In this document: positions 24,514 to 42,602 of the stretch, piece by piece | Position numbering within the stretch: position 1 is the stretch's first letter | How the letters are laid out: every line of letters starts with the position of its first letter | Source of the DNA: a virus | Lineage: Duplodnaviria; Heunggongvirae; Uroviricota; Caudoviricetes | Strand: one strand, 5' to 3' | DNA: 64,000 nt | IMG/VR virus record: IMGVR_UViG_2974615235_000001 | Location: 1,236-65,235 of that record | Made by a program: the position numbers and the translations under genes | The notes under the pieces: generated by a model | The model's input: only the letters and a program-made list of their open reading frames with translations | Told to the model about the DNA's origin: nothing | The model's database searches: none

Positions 24514-24963
24514 ATGAAAGCCTTTATCGTAGATGATGACCCTATTACATTAACACTGGTTGCATTTATGCTTAATGAGGAGGGAGTAGAGACGCAGTAT
24601 TGTCTCTCTCCTGTTCCAGACAACCTCTATAAGGATATAGAGGAATTTCACCCTGACGTAATTATACTAGATATTTACTTAGAAAACGAAAGTGGTTTTG
24701 AAGTAGCTAAGAAGATACGTCAGAGTGAGAAGTTAAAAGATACACCTATTGTAGCTATATCAGGATCACATTCCGTAGAGGATAAACTACAAGCCTTTGT
24801 AACAGGGTTCATTGACTATATCCCTAAACCTTTCACTAAAGATGAGATACTCCAAACAGTGCGTAAATATGGTTACTCTAGTGAGATACTCAGATTGTGT
24901 GAAAGAATTAATAAAAGGGAGGAACTAGATCGTGAGTTATATTTTAAGTTTGATAAAGAATAG
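24514..24963 (+). CDS. stand-alone response-regulator receiver (CheY-like REC) domain protein
   Basis: 149 aa; complete REC signature: DDD (7-9), phospho-acceptor Asp in VIILDIY, Ser in AISGS, Lys in IPKPF; no output domain. Confidence 0.65.
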   Translation: MKAFIVDDDPITLTLVAFMLNEEGVETQYCLSPVPDNLYKDIEEFHPDVIILDIYLENESGFEVAKKIRQSEKLKDTPIVAISGSHSVEDKLQAFVTGFIDYIPKPFTKDEILQTVRKYGYSSEILRLCERINKREELDRELYFKFDKE

Positions 24964-25803: not shown

Positions 25804-26033
25804 TAGAGATAGAAGTAGAAACCACTATGGAGATATGGAGAACAAAGGATACCACCTTCACTGTGATGTACCCTTTCCCTAATGTGGCTTATATAAAAGG
25901 GCTTAGAGGGAGTTTCACAAGGGAGTTGAGAGACTCTATGAAAGAGATGCTTAAAGAAAGAGGGATTACTCTTGTTCATTATGAACGTAGGAGACCTGAC
26001 GGAAGGCATCAAACCTTAGCAGTGGAGATATAA
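25800..26033 (+). CDS. hypothetical protein
   Basis: 77 aa ORF, overlapping start/stop. Confidence 0.3.
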   Translation: MIEIEVETTMEIWRTKDTTFTVMYPFPNVAYIKGLRGSFTRELRDSMKEMLKERGITLVHYERRRPDGRHQTLAVEI

Positions 26034-26593
26034 TGGCTACGATAATTAATCATTACATGAGCAAGATAACAGATTTATTCACTAAACAAGGCAGATCCGT
26101 AACAAGTCTTATAGAAAGCGGTGGATGGGTGTTTAAACAAATAGACACATACACGGAAGCGTCACCTCTTACAGTAGTACAAGGTAATAAGGTTAAACTT
26201 ACTATTCCTCTACAAGACGAAGGCTTCTTCCGTAGTAAATACTTTGAGCTGTCTTACGACTATACCTCACAGAAATTCACTCCTGTTACGGAAGATGATG
26301 TATACCTTGCTAACTTCAGAATGAAGGCTAAACCCTCTACACAGGCAGGTTATCTTAATTTCACTTTAGAATCTCCTAACGTTAGTTATAACCCTCTAAA
26401 TGGGGGAACACTTACATTCACAAAGAGCGCCAATGAAGAACATTTCTTCAGCCCAGATCTCACAGTTTTTATAGGGGAGGATGTAAGACAAAATGGAATA
26501 GAAGTTTGGGTAGAGGCAGTAGATTGTGATGTAGAAATTTATGATTATAGTTTTCTCATTACAAGACTGTTCAGCGATAAAAGGAATCCTTGA
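26033..26593 (+). CDS. hypothetical protein
   Basis: 186 aa ORF; ATGG overlap. Confidence 0.35.
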   Translation: MATIINHYMSKITDLFTKQGRSVTSLIESGGWVFKQIDTYTEASPLTVVQGNKVKLTIPLQDEGFFRSKYFELSYDYTSQKFTPVTEDDVYLANFRMKAKPSTQAGYLNFTLESPNVSYNPLNGGTLTFTKSANEEHFFSPDLTVFIGEDVRQNGIEVWVEAVDCDVEIYDYSFLITRLFSDKRNP

Positions 26594-27000
26594 TGGAATT
26601 ATTAAGACGATATTATGACGATAGGACAGAAGGTAAGTGGATATTCCCTGATGACTCTTATTGTTTCAATTTAGAGAGACCTTGGCTAAACAATAAAGTT
26701 AACGAGAGTTGCATTCCAGAGGGTACGTATATTGTATGCGAGGATTCGACAGGGAAACATCAGTGGTTTAAGTTTAAGGATGTACCTAATAGAACCTTCA
26801 TTGAAATGCACCCTGCATCTAAAGTTTCAGAGTTACTAGGGTGTCTAGCTCCTTGTATGGAACTCCGTAATGGGTATGCCTATCGTAATAAAGAAGCATT
26901 AATGAAATTCAAAGAATGGTTTCCTAATAAAGGTGAATGCTTCGTAGTTACGATTAGAAAATGGCATCCTAGAAGAGATGGTAAATGGAGAGAGGAATAA
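26590..27000 (+). CDS. hypothetical protein (Cys/His-rich, possible hydrolase)
   Basis: 136 aa ORF, last gene of the + strand block; followed by repeat element and terminator. Confidence 0.35.
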   Translation: MMELLRRYYDDRTEGKWIFPDDSYCFNLERPWLNNKVNESCIPEGTYIVCEDSTGKHQWFKFKDVPNRTFIEMHPASKVSELLGCLAPCMELRNGYAYRNKEALMKFKEWFPNKGECFVVTIRKWHPRRDGKWREE

Positions 27001-27066
27001 CCCTCATAAGAGCCTCTGTAAAGCTCTCTCAGAAGAGTTCTCCTAAAAGATGATACATTGTATAGC
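27001..27066. repeat. intergenic repeat element, copy A
   Basis: ccctcataagagcctctgtaaagctctctcagaagagttctcc ... cattgtatagc; shares core with elements at 30511, 37976, 44109 and 61900. Confidence 0.55.
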
Positions 27067-27077
27067 TTATACAAGAA

Positions 27078-27112
27078 AGCCCCTCAGATTGCTCTGTAGG
27101 GGCTATTTTTAT
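27078..27112. terminator. bidirectional rho-independent terminator between convergent modules
   Basis: agcccct (27078-84) / aggggct (27098-104) stem followed by atttttattta; A-run upstream serves the opposite strand. Confidence 0.6.
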
Positions 27113-28615
27113 TTATAAAGATTGTTTAACTCTCTCACGAATCTCTTGTAGCGAATGCTCTACTCGAAGAATTCCATCTTTAAAGACTGTCTTTAACTCT
27201 CCTTGACTTTCCTGTTCAGGTGTTTGTTGGTCATATAATACATATTCCCCTTCTTCAAGTTCTACACGTAGTAACCCTTTGGCAGACTTCTTCTTAGAGT
27301 CCGTGGCAGGGTCTTTACATACATCAACTTGATCGCCATCCCATACCACAGATGTAGCTTTAACGGCGCTGCCATGTGTATCACGAGTGACATACTGATA
27401 AGAGTAACTCCCTACACCAAGAACTACATTAGGAACAAAACCTTTAGCTTCAAGGCGCTTAATAATCTCCGCTTGACGTTCTAGAGTAATAGAGTCCCCA
27501 TAGATAGCACCAATATGGGAATCTAAGAGTTTATAACCTTGTTCTGTTTCAGTTCCTCCGAACAAATCCCATAGGCACTCCACTAGTCCTTTTTCCTCTG
27601 GGGTAGTGCCTTTCCCGAACTCATCAATAGTGCCACATAAAATGTCCACAGGATCGCCACTATCAGGGCGAATTACAAATGTACCATCTCGTGAAAGAAT
27701 GTCTTCTTTAAGTTCCACTAAGCCTTCATTTACGAATGCCCAGAAGTCAAAGCTATCGGATACGTGCGACAGAATACCTGTAGGCACTTTAGAGAACAAG
27801 TAACGTACATACTCTACCTCCGCTTCTAGTTTAGTAATACCTTTCTTTTCTACCATTCCCATAATATAACTAGTAGTAGTTGAATGTTCTGTAGCTGGTA
27901 CTGACACTCCTACCAATTCTTCCTCTACATTGGCATTATAATATTCTTCTGCAAAAAGAATACCACTTATAGTGTCTGTTCCTGCGAAGCTACACAGATG
28001 TCCGAAATCAGCCATTGCAGCGGCTTGTCTTCCAAACATCCCCCTTGCAGAGAAATTATGACACATGAAAGGTATCATGTCTAAATCACCTCCAGTACGT
28101 GTAAAGCTGTCAGTAAAAGCCCTCAAATACTCTTTGGCTGTGGTTGCACTGGTCTGTATAGGCCAATTCTCGTTAGAAAATGCAGTCTCTATATAATTAC
28201 TCAGCCAAGAAAAGTTCGGGTGAGTATTCTTGAAGGTAACAGGGGGTACACCGTAAGGTACAGACACTCCTTCTGGTAGTGCTTTAATTTCTATTGGTAA
28301 ATAACCTAGGTCGTGTAAATCCTCAAAGTGCGATACATCATAATCCATATTTAAACCTGAGTCGCAAATAAGTTTAATACGTGATATAACTTCATCCTTA
28401 GGTTGTGAAAAGAATGTGGTGTTCCACTCATCAATTAAGTAATCCTTGATAAAATACTGAAGACCAACAAAAACAACTTCGTTTGAGTTTGTGTTAGATA
28501 GTTTACCACTACGAGAGGTGTAATTAGAGTAAACTTCAGTAATACCCTCTCCGTAAGCGAATTTATGGAATTTCTTGTAAAAATCTGTGTGAGCTGTTGC
28601 GAATTTAATTGTCAT
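27113..28615 (-). CDS. nadV: nicotinamide phosphoribosyltransferase family protein (NadV/Nampt-like; possible nicotinamide ADP-ribosyl transferase)
   Basis: 500 aa; length and overall sequence typical of the Nampt/NadV family; paired with a PRPP-synthetase-like gene. Confidence 0.65.
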   Translation of the reverse strand: MTIKFATAHTDFYKKFHKFAYGEGITEVYSNYTSRSGKLSNTNSNEVVFVGLQYFIKDYLIDEWNTTFFSQPKDEVISRIKLICDSGLNMDYDVSHFEDLHDLGYLPIEIKALPEGVSVPYGVPPVTFKNTHPNFSWLSNYIETAFSNENWPIQTSATTAKEYLRAFTDSFTRTGGDLDMIPFMCHNFSARGMFGRQAAAMADFGHLCSFAGTDTISGILFAEEYYNANVEEELVGVSVPATEHSTTTSYIMGMVEKKGITKLEAEVEYVRYLFSKVPTGILSHVSDSFDFWAFVNEGLVELKEDILSRDGTFVIRPDSGDPVDILCGTIDEFGKGTTPEEKGLVECLWDLFGGTETEQGYKLLDSHIGAIYGDSITLERQAEIIKRLEAKGFVPNVVLGVGSYSYQYVTRDTHGSAVKATSVVWDGDQVDVCKDPATDSKKKSAKGLLRVELEEGEYVLYDQQTPEQESQGELKTVFKDGILRVEHSLQEIRERVKQSL

Positions 28616-28617
28616 GT

Positions 28618-29151
28618 TTATTTCTCCTCTCTTGAAAATTTATGTCCTCTGTGAGTCTTTTGCTTTCCTTTAAGAACTGCGTGGACATTTCTCCAATCAA
28701 AACCTAAGTCTTTTAAATCTTGATTGCCGTAGCATTTTGCCACAAGATTGCCTCCCATGTCAAACACTTTTGTTACGAACTTAGAATTTCTCGCCTCTTT
28801 ACCGAAAGGGTTAGATATAAGACCTTCTCTTGTAGCATGTTCCATATTCTCTTTTCTAGTATTCCATTCTAGATTTTCTAGCATATTGTTCAGCCTATTA
28901 CCGTCTATGTGGTTGACCTCTGGTTTATTTTCAGGGTTAGGTATAAAAGCTTCAGCTACCATACGATGTACACTTCTAGAATATTTAACACGAGATACAC
29001 ATAACCTCACCCTATAGCAGTTAGTTTTGTGATGTTCTTGTGCAAGGATATGGCCTCTTTTATTTCTGACCTTACCTAGATTGCTTACCTCGTAATTTTC
29101 AGGGAATTCTAGGCTATCTTTCCACACCTCCTTAGTAAAGCTTTCCATCAT
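28618..29151 (-). CDS. HNH homing endonuclease (NUMOD/AP2-like DNA-binding region)
   Basis: 177 aa; ...YEVSNLGKVRN... N-terminal module, H-N-H core EVNHIDGNRLNNMLENLEW; inserted between nadV-like and prs-like genes. Confidence 0.65.
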   Translation of the reverse strand: MMESFTKEVWKDSLEFPENYEVSNLGKVRNKRGHILAQEHHKTNCYRVRLCVSRVKYSRSVHRMVAEAFIPNPENKPEVNHIDGNRLNNMLENLEWNTRKENMEHATREGLISNPFGKEARNSKFVTKVFDMGGNLVAKCYGNQDLKDLGFDWRNVHAVLKGKQKTHRGHKFSREEK

Positions 29152-29980
29152 TAAACTCCATAACGTCTGTTTTATTTATATAACCTCCTACGGTCTGATA
29201 ACAGTATACTTTGTCGAAAATACCTCTTAGTTTAGATAAACCTTTAGGGGCAATCAAATGAGTGACATAAAGATCAACCGTACAACCCATTTCCTTAAGA
29301 ATCTCGCCTAACGCAATGTGCGTCCCGCAGTAATCACCTATGTCATCTACAATGATTACACGGCTTCCTACAGGTAATGTTGTATCTAATTCAGTCTTAA
29401 TAATACGCCCTGTAGAAATATCTCTTTCTTTAGAAGCTTGCACTACAGGAATACCTAGCACTTCCCCAATTTTCTTAGCTTTCTCTGTAGCACCTTTATC
29501 AGGGGAGATTACATAATCCCATTTTTGTGCATAGCCATCGTGACGTTTACAAGTGTACTGGAAACAAGATGTTTGGTCTGTGTGAGAAACCTCTGTGTTA
29601 AACATCCATTGCCCTTTAATTTCATTTAAGTTGTGTACATCGTATAAATGCACTTTGGAGAAAAAAGGGAAAACAGTTTCCATAAAAACTTTAAGAGGTT
29701 CTGGGTTTCCTTCCTCAAACATTCTGTCTGCCCTAGCATAAGGGAGGTAAGGTAAGTGAAGCTCTCTCTCCAAATCCTCACATCCCATTAACCACAGTGA
29801 GTTGTATATAAGGTCAATCTCTTCTCTGACCTGTTTACAAGGTGTGGTAGGGCAAACATTGAAATATAAGGTACCTTTAACTTTGTAAATAGCAGTGTCA
29901 ATTTTACAAGTTAATGCCCCATCAGAGTGTTCTAACCATTCAACCTCTATATTTTTATTATCTGCGAATAATGTAATCAT
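29132..29980 (-). CDS. prs: ribose-phosphate pyrophosphokinase (PRPP synthetase)-like protein; possible ADP-ribose pyrophosphokinase
   Basis: About 282 aa from ATG 29980 (RBS GGAGG); YARADR motif (cf. Prs YARQDR) and PRPP-binding loop VIIVDDIGDYCGT; the track's longer N-extension lacks an RBS. Confidence 0.6.
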   Translation of the reverse strand: MITLFADNKNIEVEWLEHSDGALTCKIDTAIYKVKGTLYFNVCPTTPCKQVREEIDLIYNSLWLMGCEDLERELHLPYLPYARADRMFEEGNPEPLKVFMETVFPFFSKVHLYDVHNLNEIKGQWMFNTEVSHTDQTSCFQYTCKRHDGYAQKWDYVISPDKGATEKAKKIGEVLGIPVVQASKERDISTGRIIKTELDTTLPVGSRVIIVDDIGDYCGTHIALGEILKEMGCTVDLYVTHLIAPKGLSKLRGIFDKVYCYQTVGGYINKTDVMEFNDGKLY

Positions 29981-30245
29981 AATTATTCCCCTCCAATTCA
30001 ATAATGTCATACTCTGTAATAATAGCCGTCTTAGCCCCACAACTAATAATAGGCTTCCCATCTGTAGATGTCAACACCTTAGCTACAATATTTCCTTCAG
30101 AGTCTACGATACCCACAGCGTTACTTCTAAGAGTTACCTTACCAGATGGCGTATTGCTAACACGTATCGCTGGTTGAAGTTCTCCTTCCCATTTCTTTTT
30201 ATTATTAGCTTGAATAGCATTCTTACATACACATATATAAGCCAT
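29958..30245 (-). CDS. hypothetical protein
   Basis: 95 aa; strong RBS GAGGAGG upstream of ATG 30245. Confidence 0.4.
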   Translation of the reverse strand: MAYICVCKNAIQANNKKKWEGELQPAIRVSNTPSGKVTLRSNAVGIVDSEGNIVAKVLTSTDGKPIISCGAKTAIITEYDIIELEGNNYDYIIRR

Positions 30246-30248
30246 TAA

Positions 30249-30497
30249 TTATTCCTCCTCGTAACAACATTGGACAGATACATCACGGTACACTACGTAA
30301 GACCCCTTATACAAACCTTTAATCCTCCTTATACAAGAACGACTGGCCTTGTGCTTATGTCGGTTTGAAAGTCCTGTAAGGATATAATCACATGTCGTAC
30401 TAAAAACTCCTTTTGACAATTCACGAATAATAATTAAAACCATTCCAAATAATATTACACCAAAGATCAAACTAATTACTATTAAATTCTTATCCAT
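30249..30497 (-). CDS. small membrane protein
   Basis: 82 aa; N-terminal TM; RBS GGAGG. Confidence 0.4.
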   Translation of the reverse strand: MDKNLIVISLIFGVILFGMVLIIIRELSKGVFSTTCDYILTGLSNRHKHKASRSCIRRIKGLYKGSYVVYRDVSVQCCYEEE

Positions 30498-30510
30498 AAT
30501 TCCTCCTGTA

Positions 30511-30597
30511 CCGCCCTCTAAGAGCTTATCTATTGCATACCTACCCTACCGTACCTCTTTATAGAGAACTCTATTGAGAGAGCTTCTGAGGGTGTTT
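30511..30597. repeat. intergenic repeat element, copy E (inverted-repeat arms ccctctaagagctt / gagagcttctgaggg)
   Basis: Shares the agctctctc-aga-agttctc and ccctc(t/a)taagagc submotifs with other copies. Confidence 0.5.
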
Positions 30598-30601
30598 AAG
30601 C

Positions 30602-31117
30602 TTACTTAATACTCTTGTTCCACTTAGATATTAACTTAGTTGCTTGTTTTAAGTCAAGTCCATTATGTCCACTTTCTATAATATTCTTGAAACTATTAGC
30701 ATCAGTATGACAAGCCACTACATTACCTTTTACATACCCTTTATTACTGTCTATGCGGTCTATAGTAAGAGTTCTTTTTGTAAGGGGTAGTCCTGTGTAG
30801 TAACACTTCTTAGCCTTCATAATATTCTTTACAGAGGTGAACGATAAGCCAAACTCAATGCCACGTTCTTTTGCGTTGTTGTACTTGGAAGACAGTTTTC
30901 TAGCTACCATGACATCGAAGGGTTCACCTTCATCAATACCACTGACTGAAACTGTCGTAGGTTCTTGGTACATGTCAGGGAAAACTTGTAGTAGCTTCTT
31001 CTCTATTGCAGACGACAACTTGAAAGAAGGAAATCTTGTGAAGTAATCGTCAAGTTCTTCCCTGTTTCTTTGGTCAATACAACGGTTAATATTCTTTAGC
31101 CAGTCACTTCTAATCAT
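30602..31117 (-). CDS. HNH endonuclease
   Basis: 171 aa; C-terminal ...IDRIDSNKGYVKGNVVACHTDANSF.. H-N-H core. Confidence 0.55.
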   Translation of the reverse strand: MIRSDWLKNINRCIDQRNREELDDYFTRFPSFKLSSAIEKKLLQVFPDMYQEPTTVSVSGIDEGEPFDVMVARKLSSKYNNAKERGIEFGLSFTSVKNIMKAKKCYYTGLPLTKRTLTIDRIDSNKGYVKGNVVACHTDANSFKNIIESGHNGLDLKQATKLISKWNKSIK

Positions 31118-31140
31118 TTCCTTCTCCTCAAATTTCAGGT

Positions 31141-31179
31141 AATAAAAAATCCTATAGACCGATTATGATCTATAGGATT
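31141..31179 (-). terminator. rho-independent terminator (minus strand)
   Basis: 11-bp perfect stem aatcctataga / tctataggatt; minus-strand transcript followed by U-run (plus-strand aataaaaa). Confidence 0.55.
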
Positions 31180-31190
31180 CGTCTTGTCAA

Positions 31191-31541
31191 CTAGTTTTGT
31201 GGTTTATTTTCTTTTTTATACTTAACCATCTCATCGAAATATTCTTTTCGTTCTTTAGTAGAAATAGTAGGTCTGGTATTATCCTTTATTTCTACTGACT
31301 TCTCTGTCTGATACATCTCCAAAGTTTTAACATCTAGGTTTTTATTGTAATCTGTTGTGTGCTTATATGTATTATCCGTACCTAACATGAGAAGCAACAA
31401 GACTACAAAAGACACTAGCAGGTAAATCTTAGTTAGTAGATTCCTGTTAGACTTACTAATAACTAAACCTGCAAGATAACCCATAGTTATGACTATAAAT
31501 ATAGGAACGAACTCTAAGAGGATATTAATTACATACTCCAT
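31191..31541 (-). CDS. membrane protein (two N-terminal TM helices); possible partner of SPFH protein
   Basis: 116 aa; hydrophobic N-terminus, charged C-terminus. Confidence 0.4.
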   Translation of the reverse strand: MEYVINILLEFVPIFIVITMGYLAGLVISKSNRNLLTKIYLLVSFVVLLLLMLGTDNTYKHTTDYNKNLDVKTLEMYQTEKSVEIKDNTRPTISTKERKEYFDEMVKYKKENKPQN

Positions 31542-31550
31542 GTAAACTCC

Positions 31551-32444
31551 TTATCGAATTTGATTGCCTACAGCCACTTGAGTGGCAATACTGTCTACCA
31601 TGTTAGAAGGGATGATCATCTTATTATCCGACTTTGCCATTTCATACATAATTTGAATATTATGGTATTGCAGGTACTCTGGCGTGACAGTAGATGCCAT
31701 GATACGGTTAACTTCTGCCTCTGCTTCTGCTTTCTCTACATCAATCTTACGTTGAAGTTGTTGCTCTTGGAGTTTACGCTCTAACTGTACTTTAGAAATC
31801 TCTAGTTGTGCATTCTCCTGCTCAATACGTTCTCTGCGTTCTGCTGCTAACTCTTGCGCTTTAGTTATAATCTCTGGGTAAGCTACATCCGCTAACCCGA
31901 TGTAACGAACTAAGAATGGTGTTGTTTGTTGTAATTCCTTTCTCAATTCATTGGCAAGGATAGTGTTAATACCCTCACGGCTAGAAGCAATCTCAGCTAT
32001 AGTATACTCTGCCAAAAGTTCACGCGCCTTAGAGCGAACTAGCTGTTGCGCATAAGTAGTGTAAATCTTACCTAAAGGTATCTGCTGATTAATAGCTGGA
32101 ATGCGATCAAACAACGAGTCATATTGTGCAGGGTTAGGTGTTAGAGTGAGTCGGATGTCGAAACTCATTTTTAGCTTATCTTTTGGCATGAACAACTCCA
32201 TACGCTCTGTGTAGGAGGAGTCTGATACATCCATAGTGATAAGCTTATCACAGTATGTCCAACACTTATCTAAGCGGAATTTAGAAGTGGTAATAACCCC
32301 CTCCTTATACCCGTTTTTCCCCATCACCTTGCCAACATGCGCAGGAGGAACTTCCACTTTTTCTCCCCAGAAGCACCCACCTAAAGAGAATGCCAATACA
32401 CCTATTGCTAATACCTTGCCTAAACGTTTTTTAATATTCTTCAT
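31551..32444 (-). CDS. SPFH/band-7 (HflK/C-, stomatin-like) domain lipoprotein
   Basis: 297 aa; lipobox FSLGG|C; central SPFH-like region; C-terminal Glu/Gln/Arg coiled coil typical of HflKC/flotillin proteins. Confidence 0.55.
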   Translation of the reverse strand: MKNIKKRLGKVLAIGVLAFSLGGCFWGEKVEVPPAHVGKVMGKNGYKEGVITTSKFRLDKCWTYCDKLITMDVSDSSYTERMELFMPKDKLKMSFDIRLTLTPNPAQYDSLFDRIPAINQQIPLGKIYTTYAQQLVRSKARELLAEYTIAEIASSREGINTILANELRKELQQTTPFLVRYIGLADVAYPEIITKAQELAAERRERIEQENAQLEISKVQLERKLQEQQLQRKIDVEKAEAEAEVNRIMASTVTPEYLQYHNIQIMYEMAKSDNKMIIPSNMVDSIATQVAVGNQIR

Positions 32445-38075: not shown

Positions 38076-38726
38076 TCAGGTGCTCTTAATCATACGCTCG
38101 AACCACTCTGTTTCCTCTGGAGTTTCTACTTGAGAGTACCTGTCTCCCCAAAGTTTACTATGCAGTTGGTCTAAATCCCTAATGTAAGTAACTCCCTCTG
38201 CACCTTGGTTAAAAGGATAAGATATAAGGTAAGTGTCAATCCCTAAGTTCTTAGCCTTTAGTGCATGGTCTTTATTATCCTCTACAAACACTGCGGGGTC
38301 AAGACGTTTTAACACTTTTTCTTTGCACTGGCCTAACCCTAGAATGATAGTATCGCTGATAAGGCCATCGAAAACTACACGAAGGTAATCCTCTCTAAAA
38401 GAATTATTATAGGGGCAACTCCCAAAGGAAGTCACTACCACTACCTCATACCCTAGACTAACAAAACCTCTGATAGCTTCTTTTGCATTGTCTAACGGGT
38501 ACAAGCATCTTGGGAATCCGTTGAACTCTTTTACTAAGGTTACGAAGTCCTCCTTACACATATTGAGGCCATCTTTCGCTTCAAACCATGTGTGCATATC
38601 GTAGGTGTCTTGGTTAGATAAAGGGTCTATGTGCCATCCGTATGTTTGCTCCACCCAATCAATAAAACCTCCATGCCAGTCTAGCAATACTCCGTCACAA
38701 TCCAGTGCTATAATTTGCTTAGTCAT
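38076..38726 (-). CDS. HAD-superfamily 5'(3')-deoxyribonucleotidase-like protein
   Basis: 216 aa; N-terminal DxDGV motif (ALDCDGVLLDW) typical of HAD phosphatases/NT5C-type nucleotidases. Confidence 0.5.
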   Translation of the reverse strand: MTKQIIALDCDGVLLDWHGGFIDWVEQTYGWHIDPLSNQDTYDMHTWFEAKDGLNMCKEDFVTLVKEFNGFPRCLYPLDNAKEAIRGFVSLGYEVVVVTSFGSCPYNNSFREDYLRVVFDGLISDTIILGLGQCKEKVLKRLDPAVFVEDNKDHALKAKNLGIDTYLISYPFNQGAEGVTYIRDLDQLHSKLWGDRYSQVETPEETEWFERMIKST

Positions 38727-39207
38727 TTAAAAACTCCTCTTGAAAGTATTTATCTACCATGTCCCTCCCTTCAGAATTAAGTGTTACGTTGTGCATACCT
38801 CTGATATGCCCTATAGGGAAATCGACATTAACTCCCTCCGTGAAAAGGTCGTCAATAAACTTTTCAAACTTACCTTCCTTAGCGTCAATCTCACCTTCTT
38901 TCTTCTGCCAGTACTTACTCTGACTCCCAAAGTGGTACGCTAAGAAAGCTGCATTACACATGATATGACCTACATGAGGTAAACCGCTCTCAGGGTCTAC
39001 ATCCTCCCCTGAGTAGAATGCGTCTATGTGCCTTAACATACTGTCTAAGAGTTTATCTTTAGGGAAGCCCCTTTGCCAGTTGTTCCTTTCATATTTATTA
39101 GCTCCGAACTCCATTACTGCCACCATATCTTTTAAAGCTGGCATTACGTCAAGGATGTAGCTTAGTTCAGGTTTATTATCGTTAAATCTCATTGCTTGTT
39201 CTGTCAT
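38719..39207 (-). CDS. putative nucleotide pyrophosphohydrolase (dATP/dGTP diphosphohydrolase-like N-terminal domain)
   Basis: 162 aa; GANKYERNNW...LPHVGH pattern; weak recall-based assignment. Confidence 0.25.
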   Translation of the reverse strand: MTEQAMRFNDNKPELSYILDVMPALKDMVAVMEFGANKYERNNWQRGFPKDKLLDSMLRHIDAFYSGEDVDPESGLPHVGHIMCNAAFLAYHFGSQSKYWQKKEGEIDAKEGKFEKFIDDLFTEGVNVDFPIGHIRGMHNVTLNSEGRDMVDKYFQEEFLND

Positions 39208-39215
39208 AGCCCCTC

Positions 39216-40439
39216 CTACGCCAACTGTATCACATGAAAATCTTTAATAGTGTTACGTCCAATACGTTCCTCTGGTGTATGTAACATTACCACTTGAGAT
39301 GGTACAGAACTAAAACCAATAATCCCTGAATACTCTGTACCACCCTCATCTACCCCAAAGAATGCTCCGTTTAATACCAGACGGTGGCTATCATAAGAAC
39401 ACGTATGGTGCATATCCCCACACCTGAAGTACTCTACATGCTTTTTAATCTGCTGTCCACGTTTTTTCATTTGGTCTGTCATAGATTTTTCTGTGGCGGA
39501 GTTGAAATAACCATGTTCTGCAATGAGGTAGTTACCATAAATGTTAAGGTAACCAAATACACCCTCTGGAATTATAAAGTCTACATTCTTGAAGTCACAA
39601 CCCTTGGCTAGAAGTTCCCATGTCTTGTAAATAGTGTAGTCATAGCTGTATAAGCCTGCTTTAAACATGTCCATTCCTTTGTGTTGACTACTTCCATGAT
39701 TTCCCGCAATACACAATACGTCAGTATCAATCCCTAGAGAAAACAGAGGGTACAAAACTTTTTCCCAAACATACGTAATAGCGTTTGCCATTTGTTCTGA
39801 TAAACCACTATCGGTAGATGTGGCAGATTGGATACCATGCTTCATGTGGTCTTCTACAATATCACCTAAAGACTCAAAAACAATACGCTCAATGTAGTAA
39901 CGATCTGACATACGATCAATGTACGCAAGGATTTCTTTACCGTACTCTTCTATAGCCTTGATAGCCTTTTCAGTATTAAATTGTTCCCCTACCTTGCCAA
40001 TTTGTAAATCACTGAAAAGAATCTCTACTGTAGCAGGAGGTTTATTATCTAAATTATCTTTTTTAGGTAGTTCTACTACAGGGTTAGGGTTAATACGACC
40101 TACAACGTTCTCTACAGCTTTAATGTGTGCTTTAAAGTTAACGTCTTGGTCAAATACCTCTCGTTGTATTCTACGTAACTGTGTGTTAGTACGTTGTGCT
40201 GTACGCAGACGCTTGGCTAAGTTAGAGATTGCAGTGTCGGGGCTTTCACAAAGAGTCTCAATCTCTGCGTCATTAAGTTCCTCTTCCTCAGATTCTGATA
40301 AACTTGCAATATAACTGTTGTAGTAATCATTAATAGTGCTCTTACCTCGACCAATCATTTCACCAATCTTACGAGAGGCTGTACCTTTCAATTTCTCTTC
40401 TACAATGACTTTCTTCTCTTGCTCTGTTAATCGACTCAT
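39216..40439 (-). CDS. SbcD/Mre11-like calcineurin-type metallophosphoesterase with N-terminal HTH
   Basis: 407 aa; motifs FSDLQIG (motif I), IAGNHG (GNHD/E), CGDMHH; N-terminal HTH-like KGTASRKIGEMIGRGKSTIN. Confidence 0.5.
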   Translation of the reverse strand: MSRLTEQEKKVIVEEKLKGTASRKIGEMIGRGKSTINDYYNSYIASLSESEEEELNDAEIETLCESPDTAISNLAKRLRTAQRTNTQLRRIQREVFDQDVNFKAHIKAVENVVGRINPNPVVELPKKDNLDNKPPATVEILFSDLQIGKVGEQFNTEKAIKAIEEYGKEILAYIDRMSDRYYIERIVFESLGDIVEDHMKHGIQSATSTDSGLSEQMANAITYVWEKVLYPLFSLGIDTDVLCIAGNHGSSQHKGMDMFKAGLYSYDYTIYKTWELLAKGCDFKNVDFIIPEGVFGYLNIYGNYLIAEHGYFNSATEKSMTDQMKKRGQQIKKHVEYFRCGDMHHTCSYDSHRLVLNGAFFGVDEGGTEYSGIIGFSSVPSQVVMLHTPEERIGRNTIKDFHVIQLA

Positions 40440-41251: not shown

Positions 41252-41887
41252 TCATTCTCCATTATAAGTCTCCTTCATAAAAGCCTCTACAAGTTGTTTG
41301 CGCCTCTTAGTCGCGTTGCTTTCTGGCTTAATACCTAAACCTTCTAGTACTTCGTTTACTATACCTTGTTTCTCCATCTCTATAACTTCCTTAGTAGCCT
41401 TAGCCTCCTCAAAGGTTATACCTTGCCTTTCCGCATAGGATTTAATTTTATGGGCTTCCTTCTTCACTAACTGCAAAGAATCTGGGGGAGGTACGAGGTG
41501 CTTTATAAACTCTAGTATATCTTCCTCTGATAGTAGAGACACATTACCGTGTTTATGATCCACCTCAGACGCACTTTTTCCCACCCACTCTCCTGTCAGC
41601 GCACAGTAGCTGCCTGTCTTAGCTCTCCCTGTATACCCGCTTGGAGGTTTACTAACATTCTTATTTTTAAAGTCCAGTTTTATTGGAGACTTCTCCCAAA
41701 GCCCCCTTCTCAAACCTCCCCGCAGGTAAGACCAAAAAGATGCCTCTGTTTTCCATATATGAGGATACCACTCCCAAGGTTTAAATGGTTCATCTGTACT
41801 CACTATTTTCCCTCCAGTAATTAAGCACATCAGGTCTTCTAACGATTCTAGACAAGTTAGATTCGGATACTTCAAATTTCCTCGCAA
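41252..41887 (-). CDS. hypothetical protein (possible nuclease-related; C..TGE..EVDHKHGN)
   Basis: 211 aa ORF. Confidence 0.3.
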   Translation of the reverse strand: MRGNLKYPNLTCLESLEDLMCLITGGKIVSTDEPFKPWEWYPHIWKTEASFWSYLRGGLRRGLWEKSPIKLDFKNKNVSKPPSGYTGRAKTGSYCALTGEWVGKSASEVDHKHGNVSLLSEEDILEFIKHLVPPPDSLQLVKKEAHKIKSYAERQGITFEEAKATKEVIEMEKQGIVNEVLEGLGIKPESNATKRRKQLVEAFMKETYNGE

Positions 41888-42602
41888 CCTCTTTTAAACT
41901 CTCCCTATTGACATATACACAATCCAACATAGTAATAAAGTCCTCAGGTGGTAGGTTATTCTTGTAAGGCTGGTTGAATTTTTCTGCCCGTTTCCCTTTA
42001 ACTGCCTCTCTTAAAGACCAACCTCTTTTTAGTCTGTAGGTTAGAGTGTTCTGCTTTACTCCTATTTTATCTGCCAGTTCTGAAAGGGTGTACCTAGTAC
42101 CTTCATACTTTACAATATGGTTAGCTGAGAAATTATTACATTGCTGTTTTTGAGTTGCCCATCTACAATTAGTTGGCTCATAATCCCCTTCGTTATCTTT
42201 TCTATCTAAACTATAAGTGTTGTCAGGTTTTTCTCCTACGTCTTTTAAGAAATTCTCAAAGGATTCTAACCATCTGTCACACACCTTTATGCCTCTGCCT
42301 CCGTACCTGTGGTAACTAGGGTGATTGCCGTGGTAACATCTCGCTATCATTCCTCTGTATGTTTTGTACAAAGGGTGGTAGGAAAGTCCATGCGTCACCT
42401 TACTTTTGTTAATATGGTTAACTGTGCAATGATTACAACCTTTAGTGCCTCTATTTCTCATATTGGAAATAAGTCTTTCTTGGATATTGCCACAAGAGCA
42501 TATAATATCTAGTTTACGTACTCCGTTAAAAAACACCCTGTTTATTTTAAAACCTCTGTAAATATCCCCCTCTTTGAGATTTCCGTCTTTAGTTTTCCTC
42601 AT
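41790..42602 (-). CDS. HNH homing endonuclease
   Basis: 270 aa; Cys-rich zinc module and YSLDRKDNEGDYEPTNCRWATQKQQ HNH_3-type core; C-terminal DNA-binding region. Confidence 0.6.
   Translation of the reverse strand: MRKTKDGNLKEGDIYRGFKINRVFFNGVRKLDIICSCGNIQERLISNMRNRGTKGCNHCTVNHINKSKVTHGLSYHPLYKTYRGMIARCYHGNHPSYHRYGGRGIKVCDRWLESFENFLKDVGEKPDNTYSLDRKDNEGDYEPTNCRWATQKQQCNNFSANHIVKYEGTRYTLSELADKIGVKQNTLTYRLKRGWSLREAVKGKRAEKFNQPYKNNLPPEDFITMLDCVYVNRESLKEVARKFEVSESNLSRIVRRPDVLNYWRENSEYR

Follow-up and report, generated by a model that had tools for sequence, protein, structure and literature searches.

The closest described counterparts of the locus analyzed here are the operons of NAD+ reconstitution pathway 1 (NARP1). 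In these, according to Osterman et al. 2024 (bioRxiv 10.1101/2024.02.11.579819), a phage enzyme resembling phosphoribosyl pyrophosphate (PRPP) synthetase (Prs) and named Adps turns ADP-ribose (ADPR) plus ATP into ADPR pyrophosphate (ADPR-PP), while Namat, which resembles nicotinamide phosphoribosyltransferase (Nampt), joins ADPR-PP and nicotinamide to form NAD+. The same study reported that NARP1 overcomes the Thoeris I, DSR1, DSR2, SIR2-HerA and SEFIR defenses, and it counted 859 phages with NARP1. The chemistry and the relief from SIR2, TIR and SEFIR defenses have been assayed only for SPbetaL1, Bas63, FADO, ICP1 and a few others; for ICP1, ADPR-PP synthesis by Adps was established by liquid chromatography-mass spectrometry and structures, and the NrsB operon of this phage counters Nezha in Vibrio cholerae. 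We analyzed a stretch of 64,000 nucleotides (nt), hereafter the window, which corresponds to positions 1236-65235 of IMG/VR record IMGVR_UViG_2974615235_000001 (window position = record position - 1235). Its region 27000-30300 is 100% identical to Alteromonas phage vB_AmeM_PT11-V22 (V22; MN877442.1/NC_048847.1), a member of the genus Myoalterovirus with a genome of 92,760 bp, and the whole V22 genome with its RefSeq annotation was examined beyond the window. Sequence comparisons indicate that the V22 locus at 27113-29980 is very probably a NARP1 operon into which, between the two enzyme genes, a free-standing HNH homing endonuclease gene has inserted.

The mechanism assigned to V22 has been known since 2024, and its gene is already part of the catalogue of the discoverers. 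The 'Adps homologs' in Supplementary Table 1 of Osterman et al. include MN877442_00038 (V22, host Alteromonas), for which 'Namat within 10 genes' is answered 'Yes', and the sequence given there matches exactly the window translation of the Prs-like gene. Because this gene is listed in the published Adps table with a Namat neighbor, the V22 pair counts as already catalogued. The first-pass annotation, made from the DNA letters, had proposed a two-enzyme chemistry in which ADPR-PP is formed and then converted to NAD+ without an NMN adenylyltransferase (NMNAT), countering NAD+-depleting defenses. This is the published NARP1 pathway, which it re-derived correctly. What is new in V22 are two minor details, the polymorphism of the endonuclease site and two Phe-to-His changes in Adps.

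All three genes are encoded on the minus strand, and the listing of open reading frames (ORFs) bore out the positions and sizes first read from the sequence. They comprise adps (gp038, 282 amino acids (aa), 29132-29980 with its ATG at 29980; RefSeq name 'ribose-phosphate pyrophosphokinase'), the HNH gene (gp037, 177 aa, 28618-29151) and namat (gp036, 500 aa, 27113-28615). The two enzyme genes are separated by the 534-nt HNH gene only, whose first 20 nt lie within the 3' end of adps and whose stop leaves a gap of 2 nt to the namat ATG. An alternative adps reading of 309 aa starting at 30061 lacks support, as the homologs open with the same MIT.../MIR... N-terminus, in agreement with 282 aa. Pfam assigned the 500-aa protein to NAPRTase (5e-35) and NAMPT_N and the 282-aa protein to Pribosyltran (2.8e-8). 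The V22 genes belong to the same two families as those of SPbetaL1, Bas63 and ICP1 (NrsAB) and share their order, with adps upstream of namat; the adps-namat pairing recurs in all relatives examined.

In a phmmer comparison of gp036 with all PDB sequences the best match was 9w5x/9w5w (425.7 bits, E 1.5e-126), whereas mammalian Nampt reached about 205 bits. The numbering and residues of these entries (D13, Y15, R40, F392, Y396 and T398-R399-D400) identify them as the SPbetaL1 Namat crystal structures. In addition, gp036 is 59.5% identical to ICP1 NrsB/Namat. Its catalytic core is kept, with D11, Y13, F188-S189-x-R191, D214, ATEHS (240-245) and R316-P-D318 in VIRPDSGDP, and the SPbetaL1 counterparts D13, Y15, F189, R192, D215, the catalytic His, R306 and D308 are aligned and identical. 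A 'selectivity clamp' confined to Namat, including a loop with Arg, Lys or Tyr as its third residue, has been described (PMC12774641). The corresponding helix of gp036, GSYSYQYVTRD (aa 402-412; 27380-27412, minus strand), was located by alignment and fits the Namat-only consensus, Y occupying positions 3, 5 and 7 and S, Q and V serving as Phi1, Phi2 and Phi3, respectively; its counterparts are GSFTYQYNTRD in SPbetaL1 and GSGGALLQKLTRD in mouse Nampt. K38 is the third residue of the clamp loop and is aligned to SPbetaL1 R40. Together, score and clamp support the grouping of gp036 with verified Namat and not with Nampt.

The profile comparison of Prs with ADPR-specific enzymes that had been suggested for the Prs-like protein was run with the Prs models of NCBIfam, and gp038 remained below all their cut-offs. 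The best model, TIGR01251, gave 75 bits (cut-off 113), as compared to 98 bits for the verified ICP1 Adps, which is also below the cut-off, and 423 bits for E. coli Prs, while the Prs equivalog models gave 24-67 bits (cut-offs 296-484). The best solved Prs matched gp038 with 47 bits (E 1.4e-11). In tblastn, gp038 and ICP1 Adps were 37% identical (E 9e-36), and the Adps encoded by IMG/VR contig UViG_3300030100_000755 (L013) is 63.5% identical. The motifs noticed at first reading are both present, YARADR at aa 81-86 and the pyrophosphate (PP) loop or donor-site region VIIVDDIGDYCGTH at aa 208-221 (29318-29359, minus strand), which aligns with IVDDICDGAASF of ICP1 and IVDDLSSFGGTF of SPbetaL1. The catalytic lysine K184 (KERD motif) aligns with K185 of ICP1 and K162 of SPbetaL1, and seven of the eight residues of the acceptor groove are identical (R83, F88, H116, D161, D212, D213 and D216, corresponding to R87, F92, H121, D161, D212, D213 and D216 of ICP1). 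A segment of about 27 columns at the C-terminus of E. coli Prs is missing in gp038 and in all Adps compared; loss of this alpha11-alpha12 filament/regulatory segment has been reported for Adps. These comparisons support assigning gp038 to the Adps clade and not to the true ribose-phosphate diphosphokinases. V22 resembles the NARP1 operons of SPbetaL1, Bas63 and ICP1 in the clamp motif and catalytic core of Namat, in the catalytic lysine and lost Prs segment of Adps, and in having no detected NMNAT.

In the proposed route, a SIR2-, TIR- or SEFIR-type defense of the host would split NAD+ into ADPR and nicotinamide. Adps (gp038) would then move the beta,gamma-pyrophosphate of ATP onto the 1'' hydroxyl of ADPR to yield ADPR-PP, with K184 as the putative catalytic lysine. 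Namat (gp036) would let nicotinamide displace the pyrophosphate of ADPR-PP, giving NAD+ directly; for this it would use a Nampt-type catalytic core and a predicted aromatic clamp (Y404 and Y408, aided by the K38 loop) holding the ADPR-PP adenine. An NMNAT would be unnecessary. The HNH gene would be a selfish insert that starts within the last adps codons and whose own last codons form the namat ribosome-binding site.

The claim that the window encodes no NMNAT held, and the search of the full genome found none either. The RefSeq annotation of the 92,760-bp genome lists no NMNAT. Pfam (complete family lists) detected no CTP_transf_like, NadR, Nudix, Macro or RyR domain in 65 V22 proteins, which comprise every protein of approximately 95 aa or more not firmly assigned to structure or replication. 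With NCBIfam, the first of these protein sets gave an uninformative result dominated by response-regulator families and the second a clean one. E. coli NadD and NadR produced only noise against the 346 six-frame ORFs (phmmer/tblastn; best E 0.023, 9 bits), KVP40 NatV not being among the queries. NARP2 of Vibrio phage KVP40 (Nampt and bifunctional Nmnat) likewise restores NAD+ during infection with a Nampt-superfamily enzyme; unlike this PRPP-based system, V22 has no detectable Nmnat, an Adps partner and the Namat clamp. NARP2 was excluded for V22, as no Nmnat was detected genome-wide. The NARP1-AP operons (Adps, the Macro-domain phosphatase Adpp and Namat), found for example in Vibrio phage Gary and also in Vibrio phages 166E36-1 and 1.063.O and Rheinheimera phage Barba19A, have homologous core genes (Adps 38-50% identity), and in two of them the 3' end of adps overlaps with an HNH gene. 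In contrast to them, V22 has no Macro-domain gene among the scanned proteins and should therefore not handle ADPR-1''-phosphate from aRES-type defenses. NARP1-AP was excluded as well: no scanned protein contains the Macro domain (Adpp), and neither gp039 nor an unannotated 82-aa ORF in the neighborhood matches Pfam. A RyDEP (RyR domain) accessory gene was not found among the scanned V22 proteins.

Several observations weigh against the NARP1 assignment. It is homology-based, the verified enzymes being 24-40% (Adps) and about 50-60% (Namat) identical to those of V22; Namat enzymes keep NMN-forming activity from PRPP in vitro, so some classical salvage flux may be possible; and V22 Adps has unusual residues, taken up below. 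The in vitro activity would suit a classical salvage booster, with gp038 as a true PRPP synthetase and gp036 as a true Nampt producing NMN, from which the host NadD, NadR or PncC route would finish the synthesis. Both proteins do belong to the Prs and Nampt superfamilies and are annotated accordingly by RefSeq and in the 2020 V22 genome paper, which placed both genes under 'nucleotide metabolism'. We regard this explanation as extremely unlikely, given that gp038 falls under all curated Prs cut-offs that E. coli Prs passes widely and that gp036 has an adenine clamp absent from Nampt and a Namat score twice its Nampt score. Furthermore, the Bas63 pathway was functional without host pncC and nadR, and SPbetaL1 Adps gave no measurable product when assayed for Prs activity.

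In gp038, His (H18) takes the place of the eighth acceptor-groove residue, F18' of ICP1, a residue that no other of the 12 Adps compared has there, and F221 is likewise replaced by His. The ICP1 structure shows F18 stacked against the ADPR adenine and F221 as a lid over the ATP adenine; nearly all homologs compared differ from gp038 here, and E. coli Prs also has Phe at the first site. The PP loop reads G215-D-Y-C-G-T220 followed by H221 and A223 (ICP1: C215-S220, F221 and F223), including a G218 to C change. D212, D213, D216 and T220 are kept in this loop, Y217 has its parallel in F196 of the SPbetaL1 enzyme, which is active, C218 and H221 are atypical, and ICP1 F223 is not conserved across the Adps family. 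The closest relative, L013, has the canonical F18 and DGGGTF loop, and the V22 branch is mildly longer than that of this relative (29 vs 14 unique changes). A relative-rate test was weakly suggestive, with p 0.02 for one outgroup and p 0.09 for another; accelerated evolution of V22 Adps is not claimed, as the test was not significant with the second outgroup.

These features could mean that the module is decaying or altered, with the activity of V22 Adps lost or changed after the endonuclease insertion so that the enzyme would be inefficient or use another donor or acceptor. Apart from the weak rate excess and the canonical residues of L013, three changes found only in V22, at columns with a conservation of at least 90% among the 12 Adps, speak for this, two of them affecting the ligand-stacking Phe of the ICP1 structure. 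Against it, all three ORFs are intact, the catalytic residues are conserved, His is still able to stack on adenine, the rate test is not robust and conflicts for Namat, and the endonuclease gene preserves a strong namat ribosome-binding site. Decay is therefore judged very unlikely. We treat the deviations of gp038 as a caveat and not as a sign of inactivity, because the active SPbetaL1 Adps has twelve such unique changes and also an aromatic residue at the Y217 position. They might alternatively mark V22 Adps as a specificity variant, in which F18H, F221H and the GDYCGT loop would admit another acceptor or donor nucleotide; this, too, we consider highly improbable.

V22 differs from the operons of SPbetaL1 (as described), Bas63 and ICP1 in the two His replacements and the GDYCGT loop, in being known from sequence alone, and in the homing endonuclease gene between adps and namat. 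In Pfam, gp037 matches NUMOD4 (1.6e-11), HNH_3 (6.9e-11) and the I-HmuI NUMOD-like family (2.3e-5). Free-standing HNH homing endonucleases of phages behave like the seg and mob genes of T4. The domain set and the intergenic site within a conserved operon are those of the I-HmuI-like NUMOD4/HNH_3 enzymes, and domains, position and presence/absence polymorphism of the insert identify gp037, at the level of sequence, as a free-standing homing endonuclease.

A counterpart of the interrupted operon was found in Pseudoalteromonas phage H101 (Shandongvirus), where an HNH gene at the identical junction encodes a protein 63% identical to gp037 (BLASTP E 3e-79). The three-gene architecture, the adps 3' overlap and the 2-nt gap to the namat ATG are the same in both phages, although H101 belongs to another genus, has a genome of 132 kb compared to 93 kb for V22, and shares only 44% (Adps) and 42% (Namat) identity in the flanking enzymes. 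The last 17 nt of the HNH genes are identical, ribosome-binding site included, and both phages share CAAGAGAGGAGAAATAA, followed by 2 nt and the namat ATG. In V22 the GAGGAG Shine-Dalgarno sequence for namat (28624-28629, minus strand) is located within the last HNH codons AGA GAG GAG AAA TAA. Since these codons supply the namat ribosome-binding site, the insert leaves namat translatable and the operon should stay expressed. Recent exchange between V22 and H101 was rejected, as sliding-window identity among V22, H101 and L013 revealed no co-conversion tract near the insert in which V22 is closer to H101.

Empty junctions are present in L013, Barba19A, ICP1 and Bas63. At these sites TAAGGAGAA is located 4-5 nt before the namat ATG; in L013 the junction reads ...GGAAAG TAA GGAGAA CATT ATG and includes GGAAAGTAAGGAGAACATTATG. 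A distantly related HNH (33% identity) is found in Vibrio phages 166E36-1 and 1.063.O, its gene likewise overlapping the 3' end of adps; in 1.063.O the gene is split into two ORFs, i.e. decayed. The junction coordinates compared were 28618-29151 (minus strand) in the window, 4833-5396 in L003, 3980-4003 in L013, 3830-4621 in L007 and 3839-4630 in L008. By these sequence comparisons the adps-namat junction qualifies as a recurrent homing-endonuclease site in the NARP1 operons of marine phages. It is more likely that gp037 belongs to an endonuclease lineage specifically colonising these junctions and carrying the namat ribosome-binding site than that V22 Adps is a specificity variant, and we rank the two accordingly. 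Our literature search found no paper connecting NARP1 and homing endonucleases.

Additional HNH genes were observed in the window, namely gp040 (30602-31117, minus strand) and the gp059/gp060 pair (41252-42602, minus strand), and the V22 genome contains at least five when gp150 outside the window is counted. The HNH core of gp040, which lies 1.5 kb upstream of adps, also matches PHROGs of Srd anti-sigma/sigma70-decoy proteins. The namat gene of L013 (4001-5767) encodes a protein that is 71% identical to that of V22 in its N-terminal part and 88% identical in the C-terminal 163 aa. An insertion of about 88 aa separates its RPDSGDP region from the C-terminal domain; the Bas63 Namat is similarly long, and V22, ICP1 and SPbetaL1 have the short form.

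From the HNH gene and the downstream terminator, the first-pass annotation had suggested that the locus is a recently mobile cassette, a proposal that proved unsupported. If the whole adps-HNH-namat block had recently moved into V22, the endonuclease and the terminator would mark its borders; the homing endonuclease within the block, the second HNH gene gp040 upstream, and the position at the end of a transcription unit beside a terminator-like hairpin are in line with this. The GC contents of the three genes (0.373, 0.375 and 0.398), however, are typical of the window (0.387), and among phage and IMG/VR sequences the nearest NARP1 relatives of V22 reach no more than 63-71% overall identity. 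L013 has the adps-namat pair without the endonuclease, which argues that the latter arrived separately, and V22 and H101 share no co-conversion signal around the insert. The module ends a minus-strand nucleotide-metabolism block, downstream of the thymidylate synthase and ribonucleotide reductase genes, a position common to Bas63, whose NARP1 likewise lies downstream of nrd genes. Recent transfer of the entire block is therefore very unlikely, and what is mobile is the HNH gene, not the whole cassette.

The downstream features described at first reading were confirmed in part. A terminator-like element is present: an inverted repeat at 27073-27112 with a terminator-like match on the plus strand folds into a GC-rich hairpin (AAGAAAGCCCCT, 13 nt, AGGGGCTATTTT, then further T), bordered on its two sides by an A-rich and a T-rich stretch and located between the convergent genes gp035 (plus strand) and namat. 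At the level of consensus features it is likely a bidirectional intrinsic terminator ending the minus-strand transcription block. The repeat element also reported downstream of namat was not confirmed; only short repeats at chance level were found there. Promoter-like matches in the region numbered 8 against 13.7 expected by chance, and none is claimed. Rfam detected no family in window positions 26000-32000, and the V22 genome has no tRNAs.

Upstream, the 3' end of gp039 (95 aa, phrog_8676 of unknown function; 29958-30245, minus strand) and the adps start share 23 nt. In L013 a homolog of 38% identity is encoded approximately 1 kb upstream of adps; homologs of 54% identity were seen in an oyster-virome phage and in Ochrobactrum phage vB_OspM_OC, where a NADAR-family gene lies at a distance of 1.3 kb. 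A role of gp039 as NARP1 accessory was not accepted, as homologs other than that of L013 do not adjoin NARP1; it is possibly a member of the operon. The 82-aa ORF mentioned above (30249-30497, minus strand), between gp039 and gp040, is absent from RefSeq, has a hydrophobic N-terminal stretch and matches neither Pfam nor PHROG.

Elsewhere in the genome, gp053 (38719-40439 region, minus strand) contains a dATP/dGTP diphosphohydrolase N-terminal domain (Pfam dGTP_diPhyd_N, 7e-27) and adjoins gp054, a 407-aa protein annotated as metallo-dependent phosphatase. No PurZ-like adenylosuccinate synthetase was found among the scanned V22 proteins, and a link of gp053 to base modification is therefore not indicated. 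ORF gp030 (24514-24963, plus strand) encodes a stand-alone CheY-like receiver domain (Response_reg, 3.5e-22) in a lytic phage and was already noted as an auxiliary metabolic gene in the 2020 genome paper. The only large unannotated stretch, 1.6 kb between oppositely oriented gene blocks outside the window (record 69365-70987; L002 22365-23987), has no ORF of at least 70 aa and no Rfam family at gathering score. Within it, some 130 nt are duplicated at a spacing of 332-360 nt, and several inverted repeats occur; it could be a regulatory or origin region.

With NARP1 published, the enzyme structures solved and the V22 gene listed, the operon as such adds little to the field. The RefSeq/GenBank names 'ribose-phosphate pyrophosphokinase' and 'nicotinamide/nicotinate phosphoribosyltransferase' are functionally misleading, as is the label 'nucleotide metabolism' of the 2020 genome paper; Adps and Namat (anti-defense) should replace these names. 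A specificity-variant Adps, if true, would extend NARP1 chemistry in a phage without accessory enzymes of the Macro and RyR type. With its filled, empty and decayed states, the adps-namat junction provides a small, testable case of a selfish gene residing inside an anti-defense operon without breaking it. Finally, the presence of the module in V22 predicts that Alteromonas hosts use NAD+-depleting defenses against this myovirus.

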